64,000 nt of DNA from Clostridia bacterium. Lineage in GTDB: Bacteria > Bacillota > Clostridia > Oscillospirales > Butyricicoccaceae. Location of the stretch: positions 1,083-65,082 of the forward strand of contig JAFQUM010000022.1 of the NCBI GenBank assembly GCA_017408485.1. The letters are read 5' to 3'. Positions within the stretch are counted from its first letter, which is position 1. The number at the start of each line of letters is the position of its first letter. Under the pieces are notes generated by a model. That model was not told the origin of the DNA. It saw only the letters and a list, made by a program, of their open reading frames with translations, and did not search any database. The position numbers and the translations under genes were made by a program. Below, piece after piece: positions 11 through 29,279 of this stretch.

Positions 11-1258
11 TTAGGACCGTTTATAACAAGTATCTTCACAAAAATCCCTCCAGATAAGTTCTGCCGCCTGCTCCAAGGTGCCTTCATTTTCGATCAGCAC
101 ATCGCGGAAGGCTTCATACATAGGCTTGCGGATCTCGTACATTTTGATAAGGGTCTCTCTGTCCTTTGAAAGAGGTCTGCCCTTGGTTGCCAATTTATCA
201 AGGTCGCGGGTGATCTGATATATTTTGCCGTTTTGATGGAGCGGAGCATAGTTTCTCTCTCTTGTGACCGCGCCGCCGCCCGTCATAATTATCTTACCCT
301 TGCCTGCGCCCTCTCGCATAAGGACCTCGGTCTCTATGCGCCTGAACTCCTCTTCCCCATCCTGAGCAAATATTTCGGGGATAGTCTTTCCCGCCGCCTC
401 GGCAATAAGGGCATCTATCTCCACCGCTTCCCTGCCGCTAAGCTCGGCAAGTCTTCTGCCGATGGTGCTTTTCCCGCAGCCGGGCATACCGATGAGAACT
501 ATATTTTCACTTTCGCGGCGTAGCATTTCGGCAAGCTCTTCCGCCTTGCCCTCGGGTGCTTTGGTATCAAAGAAATACTCGTGAGCTGCAACGCCCTGAG
601 CGGTAAGCATAAGCAGACCGCAGACATTTTTGATACCCAACTCATCCGCCTGCATCATAAGGGCGGTACGCAAGGGGTTATAGATCATATCTGCCACGCC
701 CTCGCACTTGGGAAACATTTTAAGGTCAACGGGAGCTTGCAAGCTATGGGGAAACATTCCCACGGGGGTGCAGTTGACGATTATCTGCGCATCAGCATGC
801 TTGTCAAGGTTGGTATAGTTATCCTCACCGCTACGGGAGATAACTGTAACCGAGCTTGCGCCAAGGCGCTTGCAACAGAGCACCGCGGTTTTTGATGCCC
901 CGCCGTTGCCTAATACAAGGGTCTTTTTTCCCTTGACATCAATCCCTCCGTATTCAAGCATACGGCAAAAGCCGATATGATCGGTGTTGTAGCCGTAAAG
1001 CTTGTCACCTCTGCGAACCACCGTATTGACCGCGCCTATTTCCAAGGCTGTGGGGTCAATATGGTCGAGATATTTCATTACATCGAGCTTATAGGGGATT
1101 GTTACATTTATGGCTTTCAGCTCGGGATCACGCATAAAGCCTTCAAGCTGCTCGGGTTCAAGCTCATAAAGCTTATAAGCATCATTGCCCAAGCCCTTAT
1201 GTATGGGCACAGAATAGCTGTGACCAAGTTTTCTTCCGATAAGACCGTAGATAGCCAT
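11..1258 (-). CDS. aroE: bifunctional shikimate 5-dehydrogenase / shikimate kinase (AroE-AroK fusion)
   Basis: 415-aa ORF. The N-terminal ~260 aa look like shikimate dehydrogenase (LIGRKLGHSYSVPIH, NVTIPYK, LGNGGASK). The C-terminal ~150 aa carry a shikimate kinase P-loop (LIGMPGCGKSTIGR). It is the last gene of the aro cluster. Confidence 0.85.
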   Translation of the reverse strand: MAIYGLIGRKLGHSYSVPIHKGLGNDAYKLYELEPEQLEGFMRDPELKAINVTIPYKLDVMKYLDHIDPTALEIGAVNTVVRRGDKLYGYNTDHIGFCRMLEYGGIDVKGKKTLVLGNGGASKTAVLCCKRLGASSVTVISRSGEDNYTNLDKHADAQIIVNCTPVGMFPHSLQAPVDLKMFPKCEGVADMIYNPLRTALMMQADELGIKNVCGLLMLTAQGVAAHEYFFDTKAPEGKAEELAEMLRRESENIVLIGMPGCGKSTIGRRLAELSGREAVEIDALIAEAAGKTIPEIFAQDGEEEFRRIETEVLMREGAGKGKIIMTGGGAVTRERNYAPLHQNGKIYQITRDLDKLATKGRPLSKDRETLIKMYEIRKPMYEAFRDVLIENEGTLEQAAELIWRDFCEDTCYKRS

Positions 1259-5778: not shown

Positions 5779-6612
5779 TCAGTTACCTCCCGCTGTCTCT
5801 TTAAGCTCTCTACCCTCGCGGAGAAGCTGGGTGAGTTTTTCTTTATCCTTGGTCTCTAAAACCTCTAAGAACTCGCCAAGGCTGTCGATAAGCATACGCA
5901 ATTCCTCAATTAGATAATCTGAGTTTGCCATAAAAAGCTCTGTCCACATATTTTCGTCGAGACGGGCAACACGGGTCAAGTCGCGGTAGCTACCCGCAGA
6001 AAAGCCCATATGCATCTGTGCGGTGGGAGATTTGATATATGCGTTGGAGGTTATGTGGGCAAGCTGAGATGTATAGGCGATGATCCTGTCGTGCTCCTCC
6101 AAGGTGGAGAATGTGACAACACCAAAGCCAATCGCAAGGAAAAAGTCCTTGAGTTTGTCCAAAGTAATAATATCGGAACGGCTGTCTGGGGTGACTATCA
6201 TAGAAGCGCCCTTGAATAGATCAGCGCTTGAATTGGCAAAGCCGCTGACCTCCTTACCCGCCATGGGGTGACCGCCTATATAGTTAAACTCATATTTAAC
6301 TGCAAGAGCGGAAAGAGGCTCATATATGGCGCGCTTGATGCCGCACAGGTCGATGAAGGTGGTTCCTTTCATATAGGGTGCTTTTTCGGTCATTGTCTTG
6401 ACTAATACCTCAGGAATAAGTGCCGCCATAACGAGCTGACACTCGCTCAGGCGCTCATCGGTAAGTCTGCCGTCGATGGCGCCCGACATAAGCGCCATAG
6501 TCATTGTCTCATCGTTGATGTCAAGGCCCAATACTTTATGGTGGGTATTGGCTTTTATAGCCTTTGCCATAGAGCCACCGATAATGCCGAGTCCGATAAT
6601 TCCAACTGTCAT
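5779..6612 (-). CDS. tyrA: prephenate dehydrogenase
   Basis: Rossmann N-terminus [17 protein letters not shown] prefer the internal ATG at 6612 because it has a GGAGGA RBS and forms a TGATG overlap with the aroF stop. The ORF track extends to 6654. Confidence 0.85.
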   Translation of the reverse strand: MTVGIIGLGIIGGSMAKAIKANTHHKVLGLDINDETMTMALMSGAIDGRLTDERLSECQLVMAALIPEVLVKTMTEKAPYMKGTTFIDLCGIKRAIYEPLSALAVKYEFNYIGGHPMAGKEVSGFANSSADLFKGASMIVTPDSRSDIITLDKLKDFFLAIGFGVVTFSTLEEHDRIIAYTSQLAHITSNAYIKSPTAQMHMGFSAGSYRDLTRVARLDENMWTELFMANSDYLIEELRMLIDSLGEFLEVLETKDKEKLTQLLREGRELKETAGGN

Positions 6613-7628
6613 CAGTCGTTTCCTCCAAGTTTGGTTATTTCGCTGACCTTCCAAAGCTTCTTTGCAAGCTTGTCAAAGGCTTCGGGTCTGATGGACTGAG
6701 GTCCGTCGCAAAGTGCGTGGGCGGGGTCGTTGTGGACTTCAATGATAAGTCCGTCAGCGCCTGCCGCAACCGCCGCACAGGAAAGCGCGGGAACAAGATC
6801 GGCTCTGCCTGCGGAATGGCTGGGGTCGATGACCACGGGCAGATGGGAAAGCTGTTTGAGTACGGGAATGGAAGAAATGTCAAGTGTGTTGCGGGTGTAG
6901 GTCTCAAAGGTGCGGATGCCGCGCTCGCACAGAATGACCTGCTCGTTTCCGCCCGCCATAATGTATTCGGCGCTCATCAGCAGCTCCTCATAGGTGGAGG
7001 ACAGACCGCGCTTGAGCAGAATAGGCTTATTAGCCTTGCCCAGTTCTTTGAGCAGTTCAAAGTTCTGCATATTTCTCGCGCCCACCTGAATGATGTCAAC
7101 ATCATCAAACAGTTCAAGCTGAGAAATGTCCATTATCTCTGTGACGATGGGCAGACCGGTCAATTTCTTTGCAAGGGAAAGCAGGCGCAGACCTTCACCG
7201 CGCATTCCCTGGAAAGAGTAGGGCGAGGTGCGGGGCTTGAATGCGCCGCCGCGGAGAATGGTAGCACCCGACTCCTTTACCTTTTTTGCTATGTCGACGA
7301 TCTGCTCCTCCGATTCAACAGAGCAGGGTCCCGCAATAAGGGTAAGGTTACCACCGCCGATGATGGCATCGCCCACCTTGATGACGGTGTCATCGGGATG
7401 GAACTTACGGTTTGCGTTTTTATAAGGCTCCTGAACACGGCGGACTGCCTCAACGATGTCGAGAGCGGAAATAAGGTCAATATCAAGGTGGGTGGTGTCA
7501 CCGACCAAGCCGAGAATGGTCTGAGTAGAACCCACGGTAGGATGTACGTCTATTCCCTTTCCGTTAAGCCAGGAAACAAGATTGTTAAGTTGTGACTTGT
7601 CGGGATTTTGTTTTAAGATTACTATCAT
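6612..7628 (-). CDS. aroF: DAHP synthase (3-deoxy-7-phosphoheptulonate synthase), class I-beta with N-terminal ferredoxin-like regulatory domain
   Basis: Core motifs include [25 protein letters not shown] and DPSH. I chose the start at the ATG of MIVILKQ (7628), preceded by GGAGAG. The tracked N-terminal extension to 7778 would run through the terminator hairpin. Confidence 0.85.
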
Positions 7629-7716
7629 TTTTGTACTCTCCTTATATAAAGCTGATTTTTTGTTGTGATTAGCCTTTCCCTTGAGGGGAAGGCTTTTTGG
7701 GCGCTGAGGGATGGAT

Positions 7717-7748
7717 AATAAAAAACCCCACAGCGTCGGGCTGTGGGG
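7717..7748 (-). terminator. intrinsic terminator in the aro leader (candidate attenuator)
   Basis: On the minus strand, CCCCACAGC-CCGAC-GCUGUGGGG (9-bp GC-rich stem) is followed by UUUUUUAUU. It lies 26 nt after the leader ORF stop and ~90 nt before the aroF start. Confidence 0.75.
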
Positions 7749-7774
7749 ATGTTTTTTGATACGGAAAATCCGCC

Positions 7775-7876
7775 TCACTCACCAATTACAGCCAAACGCG
7801 AAAAAGCCTTACCAAAGTAAAAGTAGGTAAAGCTAAAAAAGTAAAAGTATGCAGCTGACATGATCTTGTGAGTCAT
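7775..7876 (-). CDS. 33-codon Phe/Tyr-rich leader peptide MTHKIMSAAYFYFFSFTYFYFGKAFSRLAVIGE
   Basis: ATG at 7876 with an AGGAGA RBS 8 nt upstream. Ten of 12 consecutive codons (10-21) are TAC (Tyr) or TTT (Phe). It sits between the promoter and the terminator upstream of an operon that encodes pheA and tyrA. At under 60 aa it is absent from the ORF track. Confidence 0.65.
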   Translation of the reverse strand: MTHKIMSAAYFYFFSFTYFYFGKAFSRLAVIGE

Positions 7877-7905
7877 GATTCTATTCTCCTGCAATTAATA
7901 TACAA

Positions 7906-7934
7906 ATTATAACACTCTGCTTTTTGCGTGTCAA
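7906..7934 (-). promoter_or_regulatory. sigma-A type promoter of the aro operon
   Basis: On the minus strand: TTGACA (7934..7929), a 17-nt spacer, then TATAAT (7911..7906). Both hexamers match consensus exactly. Confidence 0.7.
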
Positions 7935-7973
7935 GACGACATTTTTGATTATCTTAGTATTTTATCATCAATA

Positions 7974-8234
7974 TTATCTATCGCCCATATATTTGGCTTT
8001 TGTGGCAGCGCCGCCGCGGATGTGCCGCTCCTCCTTGTTTCGTTGAAGGATGGGTTGAGTCTTTTCATAAAGTGCCTTGTTTATGTGCTTCAGCCGTGCG
8101 GTAACATCCTTGTGCACCGTGGATTTTGATACCCCGAACCGCTTTGCCGCCGCACGCACGGTCGCGCCCGTCTCGCAAATAAACTGTGCCAACTCAATAC
8201 ATCGCTCGTCTACATTCCATTTCACCGCTACCAC
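7974..8234 (-). CDS. spoIIID: stage III sporulation protein D (HTH transcription factor)
   Basis: The 86-aa ORF closely resembles SpoIIID (VRAAAKRFGVSKSTVHKDVTARL, RHIRGGAATKAKY). The true start may be the GTG at 8225, which follows GAGGTG. Confidence 0.85.
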   Translation of the reverse strand: MVAVKWNVDERCIELAQFICETGATVRAAAKRFGVSKSTVHKDVTARLKHINKALYEKTQPILQRNKEERHIRGGAATKAKYMGDR

Positions 8235-8288
8235 CTCATTAAAGTATGCTGTGGTATGTATATGAGAATGAATGGAAAAATATGAAGT

Positions 8289-8318
8289 AAGCCGAATGAG
8301 AGAGTTCTCATTCGGCTT
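8289..8318 (-). terminator. hairpin terminator downstream of the ABC transporter gene
   Basis: AAGCCGAATGAGA-gagt-TCTCATTCGGCTT forms a 13-bp perfect stem. Confidence 0.55.
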
Positions 8319-8363
8319 ATTGTTTGTATGATATTTCGTGCATCCCGAAAGGGATTTACTTCA

Positions 8364-11363
8364 TTATTCGGTTCTGAGGGCTTCGACGGGTTCTTTCTTA
8401 GCGGCGGAGCGGGAAGGAATTATACCTGCGATAAGGGTCAGCACGACGCTTATTGCCACAAGAATGATCGCCACACCGATGGGCAGGGTTGCACGGAGGG
8501 TTGCGATGCCCGTCAAGGCAAAGAGGATGGCATTGATGGGGATGCAGAGCAGATAGGTTATTACAACGCCCAGCAAGCCTGCTGCAAAGCCGATGAGCAC
8601 GGTTTCTGCATTGAATACTCCCGAAACATTGCGCTTGGATGCACCAACGGCGCGGAGGATTCCGATTTCCTTGGTGCGTTCCTGAACAGAGATGAGAGTG
8701 ATGACACCTATCATTATGGAGGATACTACAAGTGATACCGCAACGAATGCGATAAGCACGTAGGTTATGGCATTAATGATGGTGGTGATGGAGGACATCA
8801 TAAGTCCCACATAGTCGGTATAGACTATTCTTGAAAGCTCGTCAACGTCATTATTGTAATCGGCGATAACTTCTTCGATTACATCCTTGTTTTCAAAGGA
8901 GGATGCGTAGATATTTATGCTTGCGGGGTTATCGATATCCACAACGCCCAGGGTGATGAGGTTATCCTCATAGGTGGTTTCGGAGAACTCCAGCACTTCG
9001 CCGTGATAGAGAGCAAACTGTTCGGTGGTATAGCCCGCCATTGCCATATCCAAAGCGCCTGCAAGCTGCTGCTCGCTCATGCCCGCTATCTGCTTCATTG
9101 CGCCCTGAGCATATTGCATTTTGACCTGCTCGACGATGATGGAAGCGTATATCTCGCTGATCTCTTCATCGGTCATGGGAGTGATATAGCCCGCAAGGTC
9201 GGCTTCGCTCATTCCCGTCTGTGCGGCAATTGCCTGAGTTACGATGCCTTCCATATCGGCACGGGTCTTGCCCGCCATTTGCTGAGCAAGGGCCTGATCG
9301 ATGAACTCCTGAGGAGCGATGGAGATTATCTTTACATAGGCGGCTGCCTTGCCGCGAGTATCAAGGGCGGCGATGTAGTTTTTAAACTCGGTCTCCTTTT
9401 CAGCATCGGTCATATTGCCCGCATACTCTTTGAAGGGCAGACCGGTGAAAACATCCTTGGAGGGGTTTTCTATTTGTGCATTGACTATCTCGGAATCCTT
9501 GGCATTTTCAATGACATATTCGGTAAACAGATGGGTATATGCTATGCTGCCGCTGAGCATTGAAGATGTGGCTTCTTCGCTGGGACGGATGATGCCCGTG
9601 ACCTTGAGGGCTACGCCGTTATCGTAGAGCATTTTGAGTCCCGTTTGTGTGTCGCGGAGGTCGCTATAGGTGCCGTCGGCATTCTTGGTATAGCAATCGG
9701 CGCCGAAAATGGTGCGGAACTCCATAGCGCAGATCTCTTCATAGCTCCAGCTTTGAGGATCGATGGTTATCTCCTGCTTATTGAAGGCGGCATTGGAAAG
9801 CTTGTCGATCTCCTCCTTGCTCTTAAGACCGAGAGCATAGAGGGTCATATCGTCTATTTCGTTGTTTTCATCGACAACGAGGACTATCTCGTTATATTCG
9901 TTGGGCCAGCTACCGTAGATGAGGTCATACTGCTTTTCGAGGAGTGGGTTGATAAGCTCGCCATTCTTGCCGGGGAGCATTTCCTGCCACAGATTTGCAC
10001 CCATTCCCATTCCGCCCATGGACATAGCGCCCATTCCAAAGCTTTCGCCCATACTCATCATTCCGGAGAGATCCATACCAAAGTATTCAATGAGAAGATC
10101 CTGAAGCAGAACACCTGTGTCAGAGCGGATGATGGTTCCGTCGGGAGCCTTGGTATAGATGAGGATATCCATATCGTAGGTGTATTGAACACCGCTGACC
10201 GAGGATGAGAGCTTGCTATCGGATTTAGCTATCTCAGTTTCAATGTATTCCTTGAAGGATTTGAGGTCGTTTTCGGTGGCTTCGGCGGTATTGAGGGCGT
10301 TTATCAGGTTGTAGATCATTGTCTTTTGATAAACGGCATCCTTATCGTGCTTGCCGTTGGACTCGGCATTGCCCATAAAGGTGGAAAGCAGCGAGCCCAT
10401 ATCCATATGCTGAGCCTCTAAGGTCAGCGGGTAGGAAGAAAGGGTGTCTTCTTGAACTGCATCGATATAGTTGGTGGTGCCTTGGGAAACTGCGTAGATG
10501 AGGGCAATGCCGATAATGCCTATGCTGCCAGCAAAAGCGGTGAGAGCGGTCCTTCCCTTTTTGGTGAACAGATTCTTCAGCGAAAGACCGAAGGAGGTTG
10601 CAAAGGACATAGAGGGCATTTTTTTGCGCTTTTCGGCGGCGGTTTTTGCCTGCTCCTTAGCGCGCTCGGCAGCTACCTCCTCATCGGTAAGGGGCGCGGT
10701 GTCGCTGGTCAGCTTGCCGTCAAGCATACGGATGATGCGGGTGGAATATTGCTCAGCAAGCTCGGGGTTATGGGTGACCATAATGACAAGGCGATCCTTG
10801 GCTATTTCTTTGAGAATGTCCATAACCTGAACGCTTGTTTCGGTGTCCAAAGCTCCCGTAGGCTCGTCGGCAAGAATGATATCGGGGTTATTGACGATGG
10901 CGCGGGCAATTGCCACACGCTGCATCTGACCGCCCGACATTTCGGTAGGCTTTTTGCGGATCTGGTCGGCAAGTCCGACGCGGGCGAGGGCTTCCTTGGC
11001 GCGGGCGCGGCGCTCTTTTTTGGAAACGCCCGTAAGGGTAAGCGCCAGCTCGACATTTTGCAGAACCGACTGATGGGGGATCAGGTTATAGGTCTGGAAA
11101 ACAAAGCCGATGGAATGATTGCGATAGGTGTCCCAATCGCGATCTTTGAAGTCACGGGTATGCTTGCCGTTGATGACAAGATCACCCGATGTATATCTGT
11201 CAAGGCCGCCGATGATATTCAGCAGAGTGGTCTTGCCGCAGCCCGAAGGACCGAGGATGGAGACAAACTCATTTTCGCGAAATTGCAGGTCTACGCCCTT
11301 TAGTGCGTGGACAGTTTCGCCGCCCGTGACATAATCTTTTTTGATTTGCTTAAGCTCAAGCAT
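8364..11363 (-). CDS. fused ABC transporter ATP-binding protein / FtsX-family permease (MacB-type) with very large extracytoplasmic domain
   Basis: 999 aa. N-terminal ATPase domain (GPSGCGKTTLLN, LSGGQMQRVAIARA, ILADEPTGALD). A TM segment near residue 270 is followed by ~560 aa of non-membrane sequence. The C-terminus has 3 FtsX TM helices (ERTKEIGILRAVGASK). Confidence 0.85.
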   Translation of the reverse strand: MLELKQIKKDYVTGGETVHALKGVDLQFRENEFVSILGPSGCGKTTLLNIIGGLDRYTSGDLVINGKHTRDFKDRDWDTYRNHSIGFVFQTYNLIPHQSVLQNVELALTLTGVSKKERRARAKEALARVGLADQIRKKPTEMSGGQMQRVAIARAIVNNPDIILADEPTGALDTETSVQVMDILKEIAKDRLVIMVTHNPELAEQYSTRIIRMLDGKLTSDTAPLTDEEVAAERAKEQAKTAAEKRKKMPSMSFATSFGLSLKNLFTKKGRTALTAFAGSIGIIGIALIYAVSQGTTNYIDAVQEDTLSSYPLTLEAQHMDMGSLLSTFMGNAESNGKHDKDAVYQKTMIYNLINALNTAEATENDLKSFKEYIETEIAKSDSKLSSSVSGVQYTYDMDILIYTKAPDGTIIRSDTGVLLQDLLIEYFGMDLSGMMSMGESFGMGAMSMGGMGMGANLWQEMLPGKNGELINPLLEKQYDLIYGSWPNEYNEIVLVVDENNEIDDMTLYALGLKSKEEIDKLSNAAFNKQEITIDPQSWSYEEICAMEFRTIFGADCYTKNADGTYSDLRDTQTGLKMLYDNGVALKVTGIIRPSEEATSSMLSGSIAYTHLFTEYVIENAKDSEIVNAQIENPSKDVFTGLPFKEYAGNMTDAEKETEFKNYIAALDTRGKAAAYVKIISIAPQEFIDQALAQQMAGKTRADMEGIVTQAIAAQTGMSEADLAGYITPMTDEEISEIYASIIVEQVKMQYAQGAMKQIAGMSEQQLAGALDMAMAGYTTEQFALYHGEVLEFSETTYEDNLITLGVVDIDNPASINIYASSFENKDVIEEVIADYNNDVDELSRIVYTDYVGLMMSSITTIINAITYVLIAFVAVSLVVSSIMIGVITLISVQERTKEIGILRAVGASKRNVSGVFNAETVLIGFAAGLLGVVITYLLCIPINAILFALTGIATLRATLPIGVAIILVAISVVLTLIAGIIPSRSAAKKEPVEALRTE

Positions 11364-11475
11364 TGAGATTATCCTTTCTGATTTTGGATTTTATTCAGAT
11401 ATATTATACACCATATTTTTCCTCTATTTGTAAACTATTGTGAAACAAATTGAGCAAAACCTAAAAATATAGCAG

Positions 11476-11501
11476 AAAAAACTCGGTTTCCCGAGTTTTT
11501 T
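11476..11501. terminator. bidirectional terminator-like hairpin, copy 1 of a 30-bp repeat
   Basis: AAAAAACTCGG-TTTC-CCGAGTTTTTT. The sequence is identical to the copy at 11695..11720. Confidence 0.5.
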
Positions 11502-11694
11502 CGACCTTTTATTAAAACTTTTAATTTATTGAAAGTTTTCTAACTAATTGTTTTTGCACGGACATGCGCCGGGCAAAAACACCTTGACCCGCCGTTTTTC
11601 CGCAGAAAAACGGTGAAACCGCACCGCAGTGCGGCGCTCCTTTGTCGAAAAGAACCCAGCTTTGCACAGCAAAGCGGTTCTTTGACAGTCTTGG

Positions 11695-11720
11695 AAAAAA
11701 CTCGGTTTCCCGAGTTTTTT
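11695..11720 (-). terminator. terminator after the DUF4097 gene, copy 2 of the 30-bp repeat
   Basis: Same hairpin AAAAAACTCGG-TTTC-CCGAGTTTTTT, 34 nt downstream of the stop at 11754. Confidence 0.65.
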
Positions 11721-11753
11721 CGATAATTTATTCGATTAAGTCAAGCGTAATTA

Positions 11754-22071: not shown

Positions 22072-24501
22072 TTACGGTGTGATAGGTGTATCAGGTACCG
22101 ATGGTGTCGGTGGGGCAGTATGCGCTGTACATACCTGCATAGTATAGGTGGACGGCTTGAACATTCCTGCTGCAAGCTCAGCATCTGTCACTGTATAAGG
22201 CAAACAATATGCCTGATCGGTGATGTTTATTCCCGCCGAGGGATAAAGGCGGCGCAAGCTCAATGCGCTGACCGTCTTAAGCGCCGTTTCGGGGCAATAA
22301 GCATTGGCAATTCTGCCTGTGGTGGTGTCTATCTGTATTGCCATATGGTTGGTGCAGCTTTCCTTGGGTACGTCCTCTCGAGCAAGATATGCCGTTGCCA
22401 CACGGCTGCCGCGGCGGTCTATCTCGCAAAGGTCGGTTGCCAGCATTCCGCTGTCAAGACAGTAATTGACTTTGACCATTTCGGTCTTAAGCTCAAACTT
22501 TGCATCGGGGAGGTCTGCATGCACCTGCTCCATAACATCGTGCCATATCTGCAGAGCGGGGTTGGTGGAAAACTTCTGCAGACTCTGCTGCTTGTCATAT
22601 CCGAACCACACAGCGCCTACATAATAAGGTGTGATTCCTGCAAACCAACGGTCATTATCCGCAGAGGTAGTACCGGTCTTTCCGCCTACATCGATTCCTT
22701 CGAGGGCGGCTTTTTTACCTGTACCGCTTGTAACTACATAGTTGAGTATCTGTACCATATAGTCGCGGGTCTTTTGGCTCATTGCGGTAGTGGTAATAGG
22801 CGCGTTATCCAGCAGCAATTCGCCGTCGGAATCATATATCTTGGTGTACATTATGGGAGTAGTATATTTGCCGTCATTTACAAAGGCACAATATGCGGCG
22901 GTAACATCATATACCGAAACGCCCTTGGTAAGTCCGCCTAAAGCAAGGGGGCTATAATCAAGGTCGGACATAATGCTTTGAGTTCCGTCGCTGTTTGTGA
23001 CTACCTGACGGTCGATTATGGTGGAAATGCCTAGATTCTTGGTCAGGAAGTTATATGAGCGCTTAACTCCCACTCGCATAAGCACATCTACGGCAACTGT
23101 ATTGTGAGATTTACCCACTGCAGTAAGGATGTTGCAAAGTCCGCTGTAGGTACGGCTTTCGTTAAGCGGCCAACCCGTTGAACGAACTGTAAAATCCTTG
23201 GGTGCATCATCAACTACTGAAATAGGAGTGATAAGTCCGTACTCTATAGCCGGAGCATATACACTGAGCGGCTTGATGACCGAACCGGGTTGACGATAGG
23301 TCATAGTGGCACGATTCAGGACAAGGTCTGCCGTCTTTTCACCTCTGCCGCCGTAAAGCGCCTTGACGTGACCCGTATAAGGATCCATAATCACCATACC
23401 TGCCTGAGGATAGGTACCGTCGTTGCCCAGATCACCGGGGAAGGTCTCTTCGTTGCAAAATACACTGTCCATTGCCGACTGAATGTCGGGATCTATAGTG
23501 GTTACTATCTTAAGTCCGCCGTTGTAGACAAGGCGTGATGCCAAGGCTTCACTGTAGCCTTTTTCTTCCTGCAGATCCTCTATGACCTGATCGATCAACG
23601 CATCAACAAAGTAAGAGCGGGCGGTGGTATCGTCGTCATCACCTGTAACCGCAACCACTTCTTCAGCCATTGCAACATCATATTCAGCCTGTGTTATATT
23701 TCCCCATCTGAGCATTTCGCCCAGAACGGTCTCGCGGCGCTCCTTATTAAACTCGGGGAATCGGATGAGGTCGTATTTGTACGGATTTTTTGTTATTCCC
23801 GCAATGGCGGCACACTCGGCAAGGGTAAGCTCGTCAAGGTCCTTGTTAAAGTATTCGTGAGCCGCCTGCTTAACGCCGTAGGCTCTTCCGAGGAAAATAG
23901 TATTGAGATAAAGCTCTAAAATATCTTCTTTTTCATATTCTTCCTCAACCGACAGAGCTCGCATAACCTCCTGTATCTTGCGTTTTACCGAGGTCTCATC
24001 CTCGCCAGTCAGGTTCTTAATTAGCTGCTGGGTTATGGTGCTTCCTCCGCCGAAGTTGTCACGGAAGGAAACAACATAGTTCAGTGCCGCGCCGATGGTG
24101 CGCTTCCAGTCAACGCCCGAATGGGTGTAAAAGCGGGCATCCTCAACCGAGATAAATGCAAGCTGCAGCTGCTTGGGTATTTCAGCAAGAGGTACCCAAA
24201 CTCTGTTTTCATCGCCGTGAATCGAGTCAAGCAGTCTTTCCTGACCGTTTTCATCGACGTAATATATAAATGTAGTCTGGTCAAGTCTAAAAGAGCTCAG
24301 GTCAATATCCACCTCGGGGTTGACATACTTGTTGATATATACTGCAAAGCAAGCAACGCAAATACCCGCACAAAGCAGACCTATGAGCAATATAGTAACA
24401 AAGGTCATCAAAAAGCCCTTGCCTATCTTGCCTGCTACGCGCCAGCCTTTGCTTTTCTTTTTCTTCTTTTTCTTTTTGACTTTTACTTCTTCGTTTTCCA
24501 T
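22072..24501 (-). CDS. class A penicillin-binding protein (PBP1A: glycosyltransferase + transpeptidase)
   Basis: 809 aa. Lys-rich N-terminus plus a TM helix, GT51 motifs (ISVEDARFYTHSGVD, GGSTITQQL, RKIQE) and transpeptidase motifs (PGSVIKP, KTGTT). Confidence 0.9.
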   Translation of the reverse strand: MENEEVKVKKKKKKKKSKGWRVAGKIGKGFLMTFVTILLIGLLCAGICVACFAVYINKYVNPEVDIDLSSFRLDQTTFIYYVDENGQERLLDSIHGDENRVWVPLAEIPKQLQLAFISVEDARFYTHSGVDWKRTIGAALNYVVSFRDNFGGGSTITQQLIKNLTGEDETSVKRKIQEVMRALSVEEEYEKEDILELYLNTIFLGRAYGVKQAAHEYFNKDLDELTLAECAAIAGITKNPYKYDLIRFPEFNKERRETVLGEMLRWGNITQAEYDVAMAEEVVAVTGDDDDTTARSYFVDALIDQVIEDLQEEKGYSEALASRLVYNGGLKIVTTIDPDIQSAMDSVFCNEETFPGDLGNDGTYPQAGMVIMDPYTGHVKALYGGRGEKTADLVLNRATMTYRQPGSVIKPLSVYAPAIEYGLITPISVVDDAPKDFTVRSTGWPLNESRTYSGLCNILTAVGKSHNTVAVDVLMRVGVKRSYNFLTKNLGISTIIDRQVVTNSDGTQSIMSDLDYSPLALGGLTKGVSVYDVTAAYCAFVNDGKYTTPIMYTKIYDSDGELLLDNAPITTTAMSQKTRDYMVQILNYVVTSGTGKKAALEGIDVGGKTGTTSADNDRWFAGITPYYVGAVWFGYDKQQSLQKFSTNPALQIWHDVMEQVHADLPDAKFELKTEMVKVNYCLDSGMLATDLCEIDRRGSRVATAYLAREDVPKESCTNHMAIQIDTTTGRIANAYCPETALKTVSALSLRRLYPSAGINITDQAYCLPYTVTDAELAAGMFKPSTYTMQVCTAHTAPPTPSVPDTPITP

Positions 24502-24617
24502 TTTAATACCTCATATCAAAAAGACGATTGTCCAAAATGCTTATAATACTCCATATTGTTTGAATATAGTATACCACATATTTTTGAATTTTCCATATAT
24601 ATTTGGTAAATTTTACA

Positions 24618-28600: not shown

Positions 28601-29218
28601 TGGGCATACGACATCGGTTACGGCGGACTTGATCACGTTCTCGCTAGCGGCGAAGACGTCAACATCTTCGTATTTGATACCGAGGTTTACTCCAACACCG
28701 GTGGACAGGCTTCCAAGTCCTCCAACATCGGTCAGGTTGCTAAGTTCGCAGCAGCAGGTAAGGCAATCGCTAAGAAGGATCTGGCAGGCATCGCTATGAC
28801 TTACGGCTACGTTTACGTTGCATCCGTAGGTATGGGCGCAAATCAGGCTCAGACCGTCAAGGCTATCGTTGAAGCTGAAAGCTACGAAGGACCCTCTCTC
28901 ATCATCGGTTACGCTCCCTGCGAGATGCACGGTGTTAAGGGCGGTATGTCCAACTCTCAGGCTGAGATCAAGAAGGCTGTTGAAGCAGGCTACTGGAACC
29001 TCTACCGTTACGATCCCAGAAAGGTTTCCGATACCGACAACGGCTTTACCCTTGACAGCAAGGCTCCCACAGGAGATTATCAGGAGTTCATTAAGAACGA
29101 AGTTCGTTACGCATCTCTTACCAAGACCTTCCCCGGCAGAGCAGCAGAGCTGTTCGAAAAGGCAGAAGAGAACGCTAAGAAGCGTTACGCAAAGCTCTCC
29201 AAGATGGGCGAGAAATAA
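25697..29218 (+). CDS. nifJ: pyruvate:ferredoxin (flavodoxin) oxidoreductase
   Basis: 1173 aa. Canonical PFOR N-terminus ([27 protein letters not shown]), two 4Fe-4S motifs ([25 protein letters not shown]) and a TPP domain ([16 protein letters not shown]). Confidence 0.95.
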   Translation: [1173 protein letters not shown]

Positions 29219-29243
29219 GTTAATAAGTTAACTTAAATAAATC

Positions 29244-29279
29244 AGGCTCTCACCGAAAAATCGGTGAGAGCCTTTTTTG
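29244..29279 (+). terminator. PFOR terminator
   Basis: AGGCTCTCACCGA-aaaa-TCGGTGAGAGCCT followed by TTTTTT. Confidence 0.8.

Follow-up and report, generated by a model that had tools for sequence, protein, structure and literature searches.

A Phe/Tyr-codon leader upstream of the aroF operon of a Clostridia bacterium: a candidate ribosome-mediated transcription attenuator

The aroF gene (6612..7628, minus strand) of a Clostridia bacterium (contig JAFQUM010000022.1) encodes DAHP synthase and is the first gene of an operon for aromatic amino acid synthesis. It lies in a stretch of 64,000 nucleotides (nt) that was analyzed as a whole and is referred to here as the window. The gene starts with an ATG at 7628, preceded by a ribosome-binding site (RBS), AAGGAGAG, at 7643..7636. 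By NCBIfam annotation the operon comprises aroF-tyrA-aroB-aroA-aroC-pheA-aroE/aroK and reaches position 11, with pheA encoding a chorismate mutase/prephenate dehydratase. Both PheA and TyrA are present, confirming the gene content given in an earlier note on this DNA, which had proposed a ribosome-mediated attenuator sensing Phe and Tyr ahead of aroF. We read the minus strand of 7500..8100 and compared it with the upstream regions of aroF in relatives (loci with L numbers), which fixes the annotation of a 260-nt 'intergenic' stretch upstream of aroF.

The features of the leader all lie on the minus strand. A sigma-70-type promoter (7934..7906) consists of TTGACA (7934..7929), a 17-nt spacer and a TG-extended TATAAT (7911..7906). 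This was the top and only promoter-like site scoring 12/12 in the first 12 kb of the window, and it predicts a transcription start near 7899-7901. Similar promoters (TTGACA...TGnTAnnnT) are located immediately upstream of the leaders of L001, L002 and L005. A Shine-Dalgarno (SD) sequence, AGGAGA (7890..7885), stands 8 nt ahead of the ATG (7876..7874) of an open reading frame (ORF) of 33 codons (7876..7775, stop UGA at 7777..7775), with the product MTHKIMSAAYFYFFSFTYFYFGKAFSRLAVIGE. Codons 10-21 (7849..7814), YFYFFSFTYFYF, include 4 UAC and 6 UUU codons, so that 10 of the 12 specify Tyr, in each case TAC, or Phe, in each case TTT. An intrinsic terminator (7748..7720) begins 26 nt past the leader stop. 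Its G+C-rich hairpin of 9 base pairs (bp) is formed by CCCCACAGC (5' arm, 7748..7740), CCGAC (loop, 7739..7735) and GCUGUGGGG (3' arm, 7734..7726), followed by U6 (7725..7720), and folds with -17.9 kcal/mol (z-score -5.0). The promoter, the AGGAGA-led ORF with its aromatic run, the 26-nt gap and the terminator had all been described in the earlier note and read the same way here. The ORF, called untracked there, is indeed missing from the ORF list of the window, but its 33-residue product is called as a gene in public assemblies carrying an identical AroF.

The frequency of Phe/Tyr codons in the run, 10 per 12, is the maximum across the six frames of the 64-kb window, the runner-up reaching 8. 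A first-order Markov model, simulated 100 times, never gave more than 8 Phe/Tyr codons in 12. In a scan of the 64-kb window for other short ORFs rich in one amino acid, none resembling a second attenuator was found. Codon choice in the leader is skewed (TTT in 7 of 7, TAC in 4 of 4 cases), while the genes of the window favor TAT (73 vs 31). Across the leader family, 81% of the Phe codons are TTT. We infer that this skew is due mainly to the needs of hairpin pairing and U-richness.

Between the start codon and the terminator, the leader RNA can form several helices. Segment 1 (CAGCUG, 7857..7852, codons 7-9) can pair with UGGCUG in segment 2, giving the outer helix P1, which in the window is weak (6 bp, 2 of them G-U). 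The leader hairpin P2 (7834..7805; -11.5 kcal/mol) is composed of AGCUUUACC (5' strand, 7834..7826, codons 15-17), the 12-nt loop UACUUUUACUUU (7825..7814, codons 18-21, encoding Y-F-Y-F) and GGUAAGGCU (3' strand, 7813..7805, codons 22-24), and is followed by a U run extending to 7801. Segment 2, GCGUUUGGCUGU (7799..7788, codons 26-30), is the 5' strand of an antiterminator. The 3' strand is segment 3, ACAGCCCGACGC (7744..7733), which runs from the distal part of the terminator 5' arm across the loop and 2 nt into the 3' arm. The two segments pair at 11 of 12 positions, and the whole antiterminator (7799..7733) folds with -26.3 kcal/mol (z-score -4.0; 0 of 200 shuffles). A fold competing with the terminator, for which the earlier note had suggested looking, is therefore available; it is made by GCGUUUGGCUGU and not by codons 22-25, the segment that the note had pointed out.

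To determine how widely the leader occurs, an AroF scan with one genome per species provided 80 loci of 63-85% identity, mostly from Oscillospiraceae, Acutalibacteraceae, Lachnospiraceae and other Clostridia metagenome-assembled genomes (MAGs), with one complete genome, that of Oscillibacter valericigenes. In 62 of the 80 loci, or about three quarters of those sampled, an SD sequence, an ATG, an upstream ORF (uORF) of 16-47 codons with a Phe/Tyr run, and an intrinsic terminator were found within 400 nt upstream of aroF, the SD sequence at nearly all 62 leaders. Typical leader peptides are MSTFTFAAEYRYFSFTYYFGKAYFGLAENECV in O. valericigenes Sjm18-20 (L004, leader near 7798..7976) and MKRNLFAAEYFYFNFAYFFGKAFSRLADNRF; MKSIFVFAYYYYFTMDS is an example of the short form. 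On average the leaders contain 4.9 Phe and 3.8 Tyr, with at least two of each in 58 of 62 and Trp in only 6, consistent with the mixed Phe and Tyr sensing proposed earlier. The Phe/Tyr run is constant across leaders, although its nucleotide sequence and length vary, as do the length and C-terminus of the peptide. Peptides in the branch of the window are longer (~30 residues), with a conserved SFT...GKA. The gene order aroF-tyrA-aroB-aroA-aroC-pheA-aroE/K follows most leader-bearing loci. Conservation of the aromatic run in Clostridia, which the earlier note had named as a check, was thus observed, together with covariation in the hairpins.

An alignment of the closest leaders revealed conserved nucleotide blocks, and a covariance model, R1, was built from 14 sequences with a proposed 'off' structure. 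R1 scored 99.8 bits on the window leader. A search of 81 sources (E-value ≤0.01) returned 56 matches, 52 of which were leaders upstream of aroF. Note that R1 gives false positives of 27-33 bits on ordinary or reversed terminators, and a match below ~35 bits is not countable as a leader. Exact copies of the core motif are present in at least 120 contigs from metagenomes, many carrying a human gut label, and R1 matched 78 of 80 such contigs examined.

Base pairing was counted in the 42 best R1 matches. P2 was paired at 94-95%, with many double (compensatory) changes, and the terminator helix at 94.5%, each of its 12 pairs showing changes in both arms. The outer helix P1 was paired at 76%, as compared to 28-42% for slid partners. 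For the antiterminator, a helix to which the 42-sequence alignment A4 was not fitted, pairing reached 73.7% versus 27-41% when slid, a value reached by 0 of 500 shuffles. The best duplex between the region after the run and the terminator 5' arm plus loop had a median energy of -18 kcal/mol in the 62 loci and a mean z-score of -2.6 against shuffles, with z below -2 in 39 of 62. The pairing is kept by differing sequences, such as CGGUUUGGCC/GGCCGGACCG in L014 and GCUGACU/GGUCAGC in L003. The 5' strand of the antiterminator coincides with the last codons in long peptides and lies just past the stop codon in short ones; it is reachable by a terminating ribosome in both forms.

The same comparison bears on the peptide itself. 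The product has a hydrophobic sequence, and public assemblies annotate its ORF as a gene, as would be expected of a functional small membrane or signalling peptide whose ORF is merely followed by a terminator hairpin. In contrast, peptide length ranges from 16 to 47 residues, and conservation is confined to the Phe/Tyr run and to residues imposed by the RNA helices. GGUAAGG, in the 3' strand of P2, is kept in short-peptide variants (L035, L038 and L039), where it lies past the stop codon or contains it, indicating that the conservation of SFT...GKA is imposed by RNA pairing and not by peptide function. The P2 loops of relatives encode YYF, YFY, FFF and the like, and in the short-peptide variants the run sits in the 5' strand. 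In addition, the peptide matched no family in Pfam or NCBIfam, and the ORF is in every case preceded by a promoter and followed by the aro operon, together with an antiterminator overlapping the terminator. An independent function of the peptide is thus hardly credible. As a side observation, L038 reads AAC AGG UAA GG; depending on the lineage, these nucleotides belong to the coding sequence or lie outside it.

An RNA-only or protein-binding leader (riboswitch, T-box-like or TRAP/PyrR-like), in which the ORF would be incidental, would account for a conservation that to a large extent concerns nucleotides: GGUAAGGCU persists outside the ORF or across the stop codon, UUU (81%) and UAC are preferred over their synonyms, and the covariation of P2 is clear. 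A frame test was anchored on the RNA alignment and made no use of the ORF choice, taking each SD plus ATG within 120 nt upstream. Of 43 such candidates, 39 were in the Phe/Tyr frame, where one third is expected by chance. The run always encodes Phe and Tyr though nucleotides and length vary, and where the stop codon lies with respect to the antiterminator strand follows the length of the peptide. A permissive Rfam scan of 6000..9500 (E-value ≤10) detected no T-box, riboswitch or amino acid leader family, and a scan of the whole window at gathering score detected no leader family or T-box, in agreement with the exclusion of known leaders called for in the earlier note. The library presumably includes the Phe, Trp, His, Leu and Thr leaders, the Leu/phe leader of Lactococcus and the T-box. 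No (G/U)AG repeat array was present in the minus strand of 7500..8100. A leader that acts without translation is thus very unlikely. The only match overlapping the leader, to the trpB motif RF04312 (21.9 bits, threshold 59), was driven by the terminator and was rejected.

T-boxes were also considered in relatives. In 9 relatives that have no Phe/Tyr leader, no T-box was found upstream of aroF, and the idea that the leader replaces a T-box is thus unsupported. L074, which lacks the Phe/Tyr leader, carries a T-box at 10259..10503 (plus strand; 93.6 bits, at gathering score), located downstream of aroF-tyrA-pheA.

We next analyzed the effect of ribosome position on folding. Equilibrium folds did not discriminate between states and were replaced by state-specific folding of a transcript extending only to the terminator loop, with three ribosome states. 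The probability that the terminator 5' arm is already paired had a family median of 0.78 with the ribosome stalled in the run and 0.49 with the ribosome at the stop codon. The difference was in the expected direction in 56 of 62 loci (Wilcoxon p 9e-11). In the window, the values were 0.65 (stalled), 0.01 (at the stop) and 0.65 (untranslated). Folding with a stalled ribosome, as the earlier note had advised, thus separates the two translated states.

Computation and comparison establish the parts of the element, their conservation, the covariation of P2, terminator and antiterminator, and the reading frame. With its promoter-proximal ORF, cognate codons, terminator and mutually exclusive antiterminator, the element has, as modelled here, the sequence features expected of the mechanistic class of leader-peptide attenuators. 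We consider it very probable, from the sequence comparisons, that it acts as a ribosome-mediated transcription attenuator of the aroF...aroE/K operon and reads the supply of charged tRNA-Phe and tRNA-Tyr, as the earlier note had put forward. In the proposed mechanism, transcription would begin ~25 nt ahead of an ORF of 33 codons that is translated well. With ample Phe and Tyr, the ribosome would pass the 12-codon run and reach the UGA at 7777..7775, where its footprint, judged by geometry, would hide the GGCUGU end (7793..7788) of segment 2 (7799..7788). With segment 2 masked, the terminator (7748..7726) and U6 would fold and the transcript would end at ~7720, before aroF. If one or the other charged tRNA runs low, the ribosome would stall in codons 10-21, its footprint presumably ending upstream of segment 2. 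Segment 2 would then be free to pair with 7744..7733 once this sequence is made, no terminator would form, and RNA polymerase would enter aroF. The decision would be kinetic and not an equilibrium outcome, with the antiterminator likely forming first. P2 and the U run may provide an RNA polymerase pause that synchronizes ribosome and polymerase, and the weak segment 1:segment 2 helix P1 may serve as an anti-antiterminator when the leader is untranslated.

Several points weigh against this interpretation, the support for which is entirely sequence-based. The uORFs were initially selected by aromatic content, which biases the conservation counts (62 of 80), and the pair counts of P1, P2 and the terminator are inflated because alignments A3 and A4 were fitted to the structure of the model. 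The U-rich run is stop-free in every frame, and its being open therefore says little by itself. In equilibrium folds with masked ribosome footprints, the terminator was favored in nearly all loci in any state. The choice would therefore have to be a kinetic one, which is also how the classical attenuators of trp and phe work, and the model would depend on co-transcriptional kinetics that lie beyond these computations. Antitermination is predicted for the window leader even when it is not translated, and thus superattenuation, in which no translation gives termination, is unsupported at this locus, with its P1 of only 6 bp. Finally, the RNA polymerase of B. subtilis is reported to outrun ribosomes; if this is general in Firmicutes, coupling would be harder.

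The earlier note had further drawn attention to a 10-nt perfect complementarity of AAGGCUUUUU (7810..7801) with AAAAAGCCUU (7698..7689), the latter overlapping an extra hairpin (7694..7671, minus strand; -13.1 kcal/mol) between the terminator and the aroF RBS, and had suggested long-range alternative pairings. Both complementarity and hairpin are real, and by rough estimate the chance of a perfect 10-mer in ~150 nt is of the order of 1e-4, though higher in AU-rich sequence. The attenuator might in that case also use pairing of the leader with the post-terminator hairpin, for example as a second switch on read-through transcripts. However, the pairing is not conserved. The hairpin is unique in the window and is absent in the nearest relatives, L001 and L002, where only ~78 nt separate the leader stop from aroF, and in 25 of the 62 loci the terminator is followed by less than 25 nt. 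No excess of leader-to-downstream complementarity was found in 37 testable loci (mean z-score -0.12; 1 of 37 at z below -2; window z-score -1.66). The segment 7698..7689 lies 3' of the termination point and thus cannot affect the termination decision. We conclude that hairpin 7694..7671 is lineage-specific and lies outside the conserved attenuator, and we regard a regulatory long-range pairing as highly improbable. Long-range pairs with sequence near aroF in the minimum-energy fold of the whole leader were likewise dropped, as they are not conserved. Read on the plus strand, 7671..7698 resembles an intrinsic terminator (stem plus CTTTTTGGGC), with only antisense aroF upstream of it.

The gene upstream of the aro promoter is spoIIID (7974..8234, minus strand), which is on the same strand, ends ~40 nt before the promoter and fits a spore-forming Firmicute. 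No terminator-like site is listed between spoIIID and the promoter (7935..7974), so that read-through from this mother-cell sporulation gene into the aro leader is possible. This arrangement is what would be expected if the terminator were a constitutive insulator that only blocks spoIIID read-through, with the aro operon controlled elsewhere. In contrast, the terminator is located downstream of the strong aro promoter and would stop the operon's own transcripts. Moreover, leader, antiterminator and terminator are kept in 61 other loci, none of which has a SpoIIID match (tblastn, flanks of up to 8 kb). We assign next to no probability to the insulator explanation, and return to the leader as an attenuator.

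How does this attenuator relate to known systems? The enterobacterial pheL-pheA and trpL leaders share its four-segment design, in which the regulatory codons are followed by a segment with two alternative partners, an earlier segment and the terminator 5' arm, and the antiterminator strand is hidden by a ribosome that has reached the stop codon. The pheL/pheA-type architecture named in the earlier note thus applies to the design, but not to family membership: the window leader has no sequence or Rfam-model similarity to these leaders and matches no Rfam leader model. It also differs in that the element would sense two amino acids and control the common pathway together with both terminal branches, and in that termination is not the predicted default of the window leader when it is left untranslated.

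A closer counterpart was described by Stav et al. in 2019 (BMC Microbiol 19:66, PMC6429828, Fig. 6b and Additional file 3), who presented two Firmicute 'aromatic amino acid attenuators', found from Clostridium novyi; in the parts of that account cited here, these are given as predictions without experimental tests. One of them, uORF-12 (1258 examples), mostly precedes transporters. The other, uORF-13, counts 336 examples, of which 43% belong to Firmicutes (Clostridiales and others) and the remainder are metagenomic. About half of these are upstream of aroF, with tyrA the next commonest gene, and the seed is Clostridium novyi NC_008593.1/2309418-2308872. Both are stated there to be structurally and phylogenetically distinct from aroR (PMC6429828). 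Compared by this partial published description and not by alignment, the window leader resembles uORF-13 in lying upstream of aroF/tyrA in a Firmicute, and the description fits because the P2 loop encodes Y-F-Y-F. In contrast, the account of uORF-13, as far as cited, names only ORF, hairpin and terminator, whereas the window leader adds an antiterminator and a segment 1:segment 2 helix with covariation. The branch of the window, uncultured Oscillospiraceae-like Clostridia, moreover has peptides of ~30 residues with a hairpin-imposed SFT...GKA. Rfam 15 does not include uORF-13, aroR or uORFC-13-1.

Two further leaders precede aroF in other groups. The aroR leader of Corynebacterium glutamicum, with F-Y-F ahead of aroF, is reported to show increased read-through under Phe limitation and no effect of Tyr supply (Neshat et al. 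2014, as cited in PMC11802643). It follows the same logic of mixed Phe/Tyr codons before a DAHP synthase operon, but belongs to Actinobacteria and has only three regulatory codons versus 10 in the window. The uORFC-13-1 element, which Brewer et al. (2021, PMC8632094) proposed to be an attenuator, precedes aroF in Acholeplasma and is similar in placing a Phe-codon uORF directly upstream of an intrinsic terminator and aroF. It differs, by its description, in having only 24 examples (Acholeplasma and environmental) and a U run encoding at least one Phe (PMC8632094).

For other amino acids, leader attenuators have been predicted or studied in Firmicutes for his in the B. cereus group and Peptostreptococcaceae (PMC2965389, PMC9413887), ilv-leu in S. 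aureus (PMC5794164) and leuA in streptococci (PMC5314783). These concern other operons and unrelated sequences, but demonstrate ribosome-mediated attenuation beside T-boxes in Firmicutes. The statement in the earlier note that leader-peptide attenuation would be unusual in this phylum is, in view of these reports and of uORF-12 and uORF-13 as described in the cited parts of PMC6429828, out of date. The window leader is not a new kind of element; the kind was already predicted in Firmicutes in 2019, and current understanding stands. What the analysis adds to the description of uORF-13 is an antiterminator with covariation, an independent frame test and a picture of how the leader is distributed among Clostridia; it also rejects the long-range pairing. 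It provides a further case suggesting that ribosome-mediated amino acid attenuation is common in Firmicutes, alongside T-box or TRAP control. The Clostridia group concerned is mostly uncultured and known from animal- and human-gut assemblies, and for these organisms the leader offers a testable regulatory model of the whole common aromatic pathway with its Phe and Tyr branches. Oscillibacter valericigenes Sjm18-20 is a cultured carrier of the leader.

A more far-reaching possibility is that the invariant hairpin of the Oscillospiraceae type (AGCUUUACC/GGUAAGGCU) and its U run constitute a dedicated pause that holds RNA polymerase until the ribosome arrives, which would make the element more than a routine copy of uORF-13. 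We consider this unlikely. If true, transcription-translation coupling would be enforced locally in a Firmicute lineage, Phe and Tyr would be truly sensed together across a 12-codon window, and the family would be a natural test bed for coupling-dependent attenuation in Clostridia.

Several minor observations were made on the sources searched. The R1 match at 29175..29278 (plus strand) of the window is a terminator after a pyruvate:ferredoxin oxidoreductase-like gene and not a leader. The match at L023:3372-3510 was rejected for having neither a Phe/Tyr uORF nor a biosynthetic gene downstream, and those at L006 7936..8067 and L037 3538..3639 (both minus strand) are palindromic terminators read in reverse. 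The second-highest Phe/Tyr density in the window, 8 of 12 codons, is found at 24439..24540 (plus strand; translation ...FAFLFLLFLFDFYFFVFHF...). The AroF sequence of the window occurs identically on 5 short metagenome contigs and in MAG GCA_054269075.1 (L081-L084). On each contig with this AroF the 33-residue leader ORF is called, without family annotation, and the spoIIID-leader-aroF arrangement is also present in L081-L084.

The last gene of the operon (11..1258, minus strand) is a fusion of AroE (residues ~1-240) and AroK (~250-410), which recurs at the operon end in most relatives. On the other side of spoIIID, a MacB-like fused ABC (ATP-binding cassette) ATPase/permease of 999 residues is encoded at 8364..11363. 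Between the two genes lies a 16-bp hairpin, AGTAAGCCGAATGAGAG...CTCATTCGGCTTATT (8286..8321), which gave weak chance hits in Rfam and is probably the terminator of the MacB-like gene. Finally, two identical 28-nt palindromic hairpins, GAAAAAACTCGGTTTCCCGAGTTTTTTC, are located ~220 nt apart at 11475..11502 and 11694..11721; each scores as a terminator in both directions, and the short segment between them has a higher G+C content.

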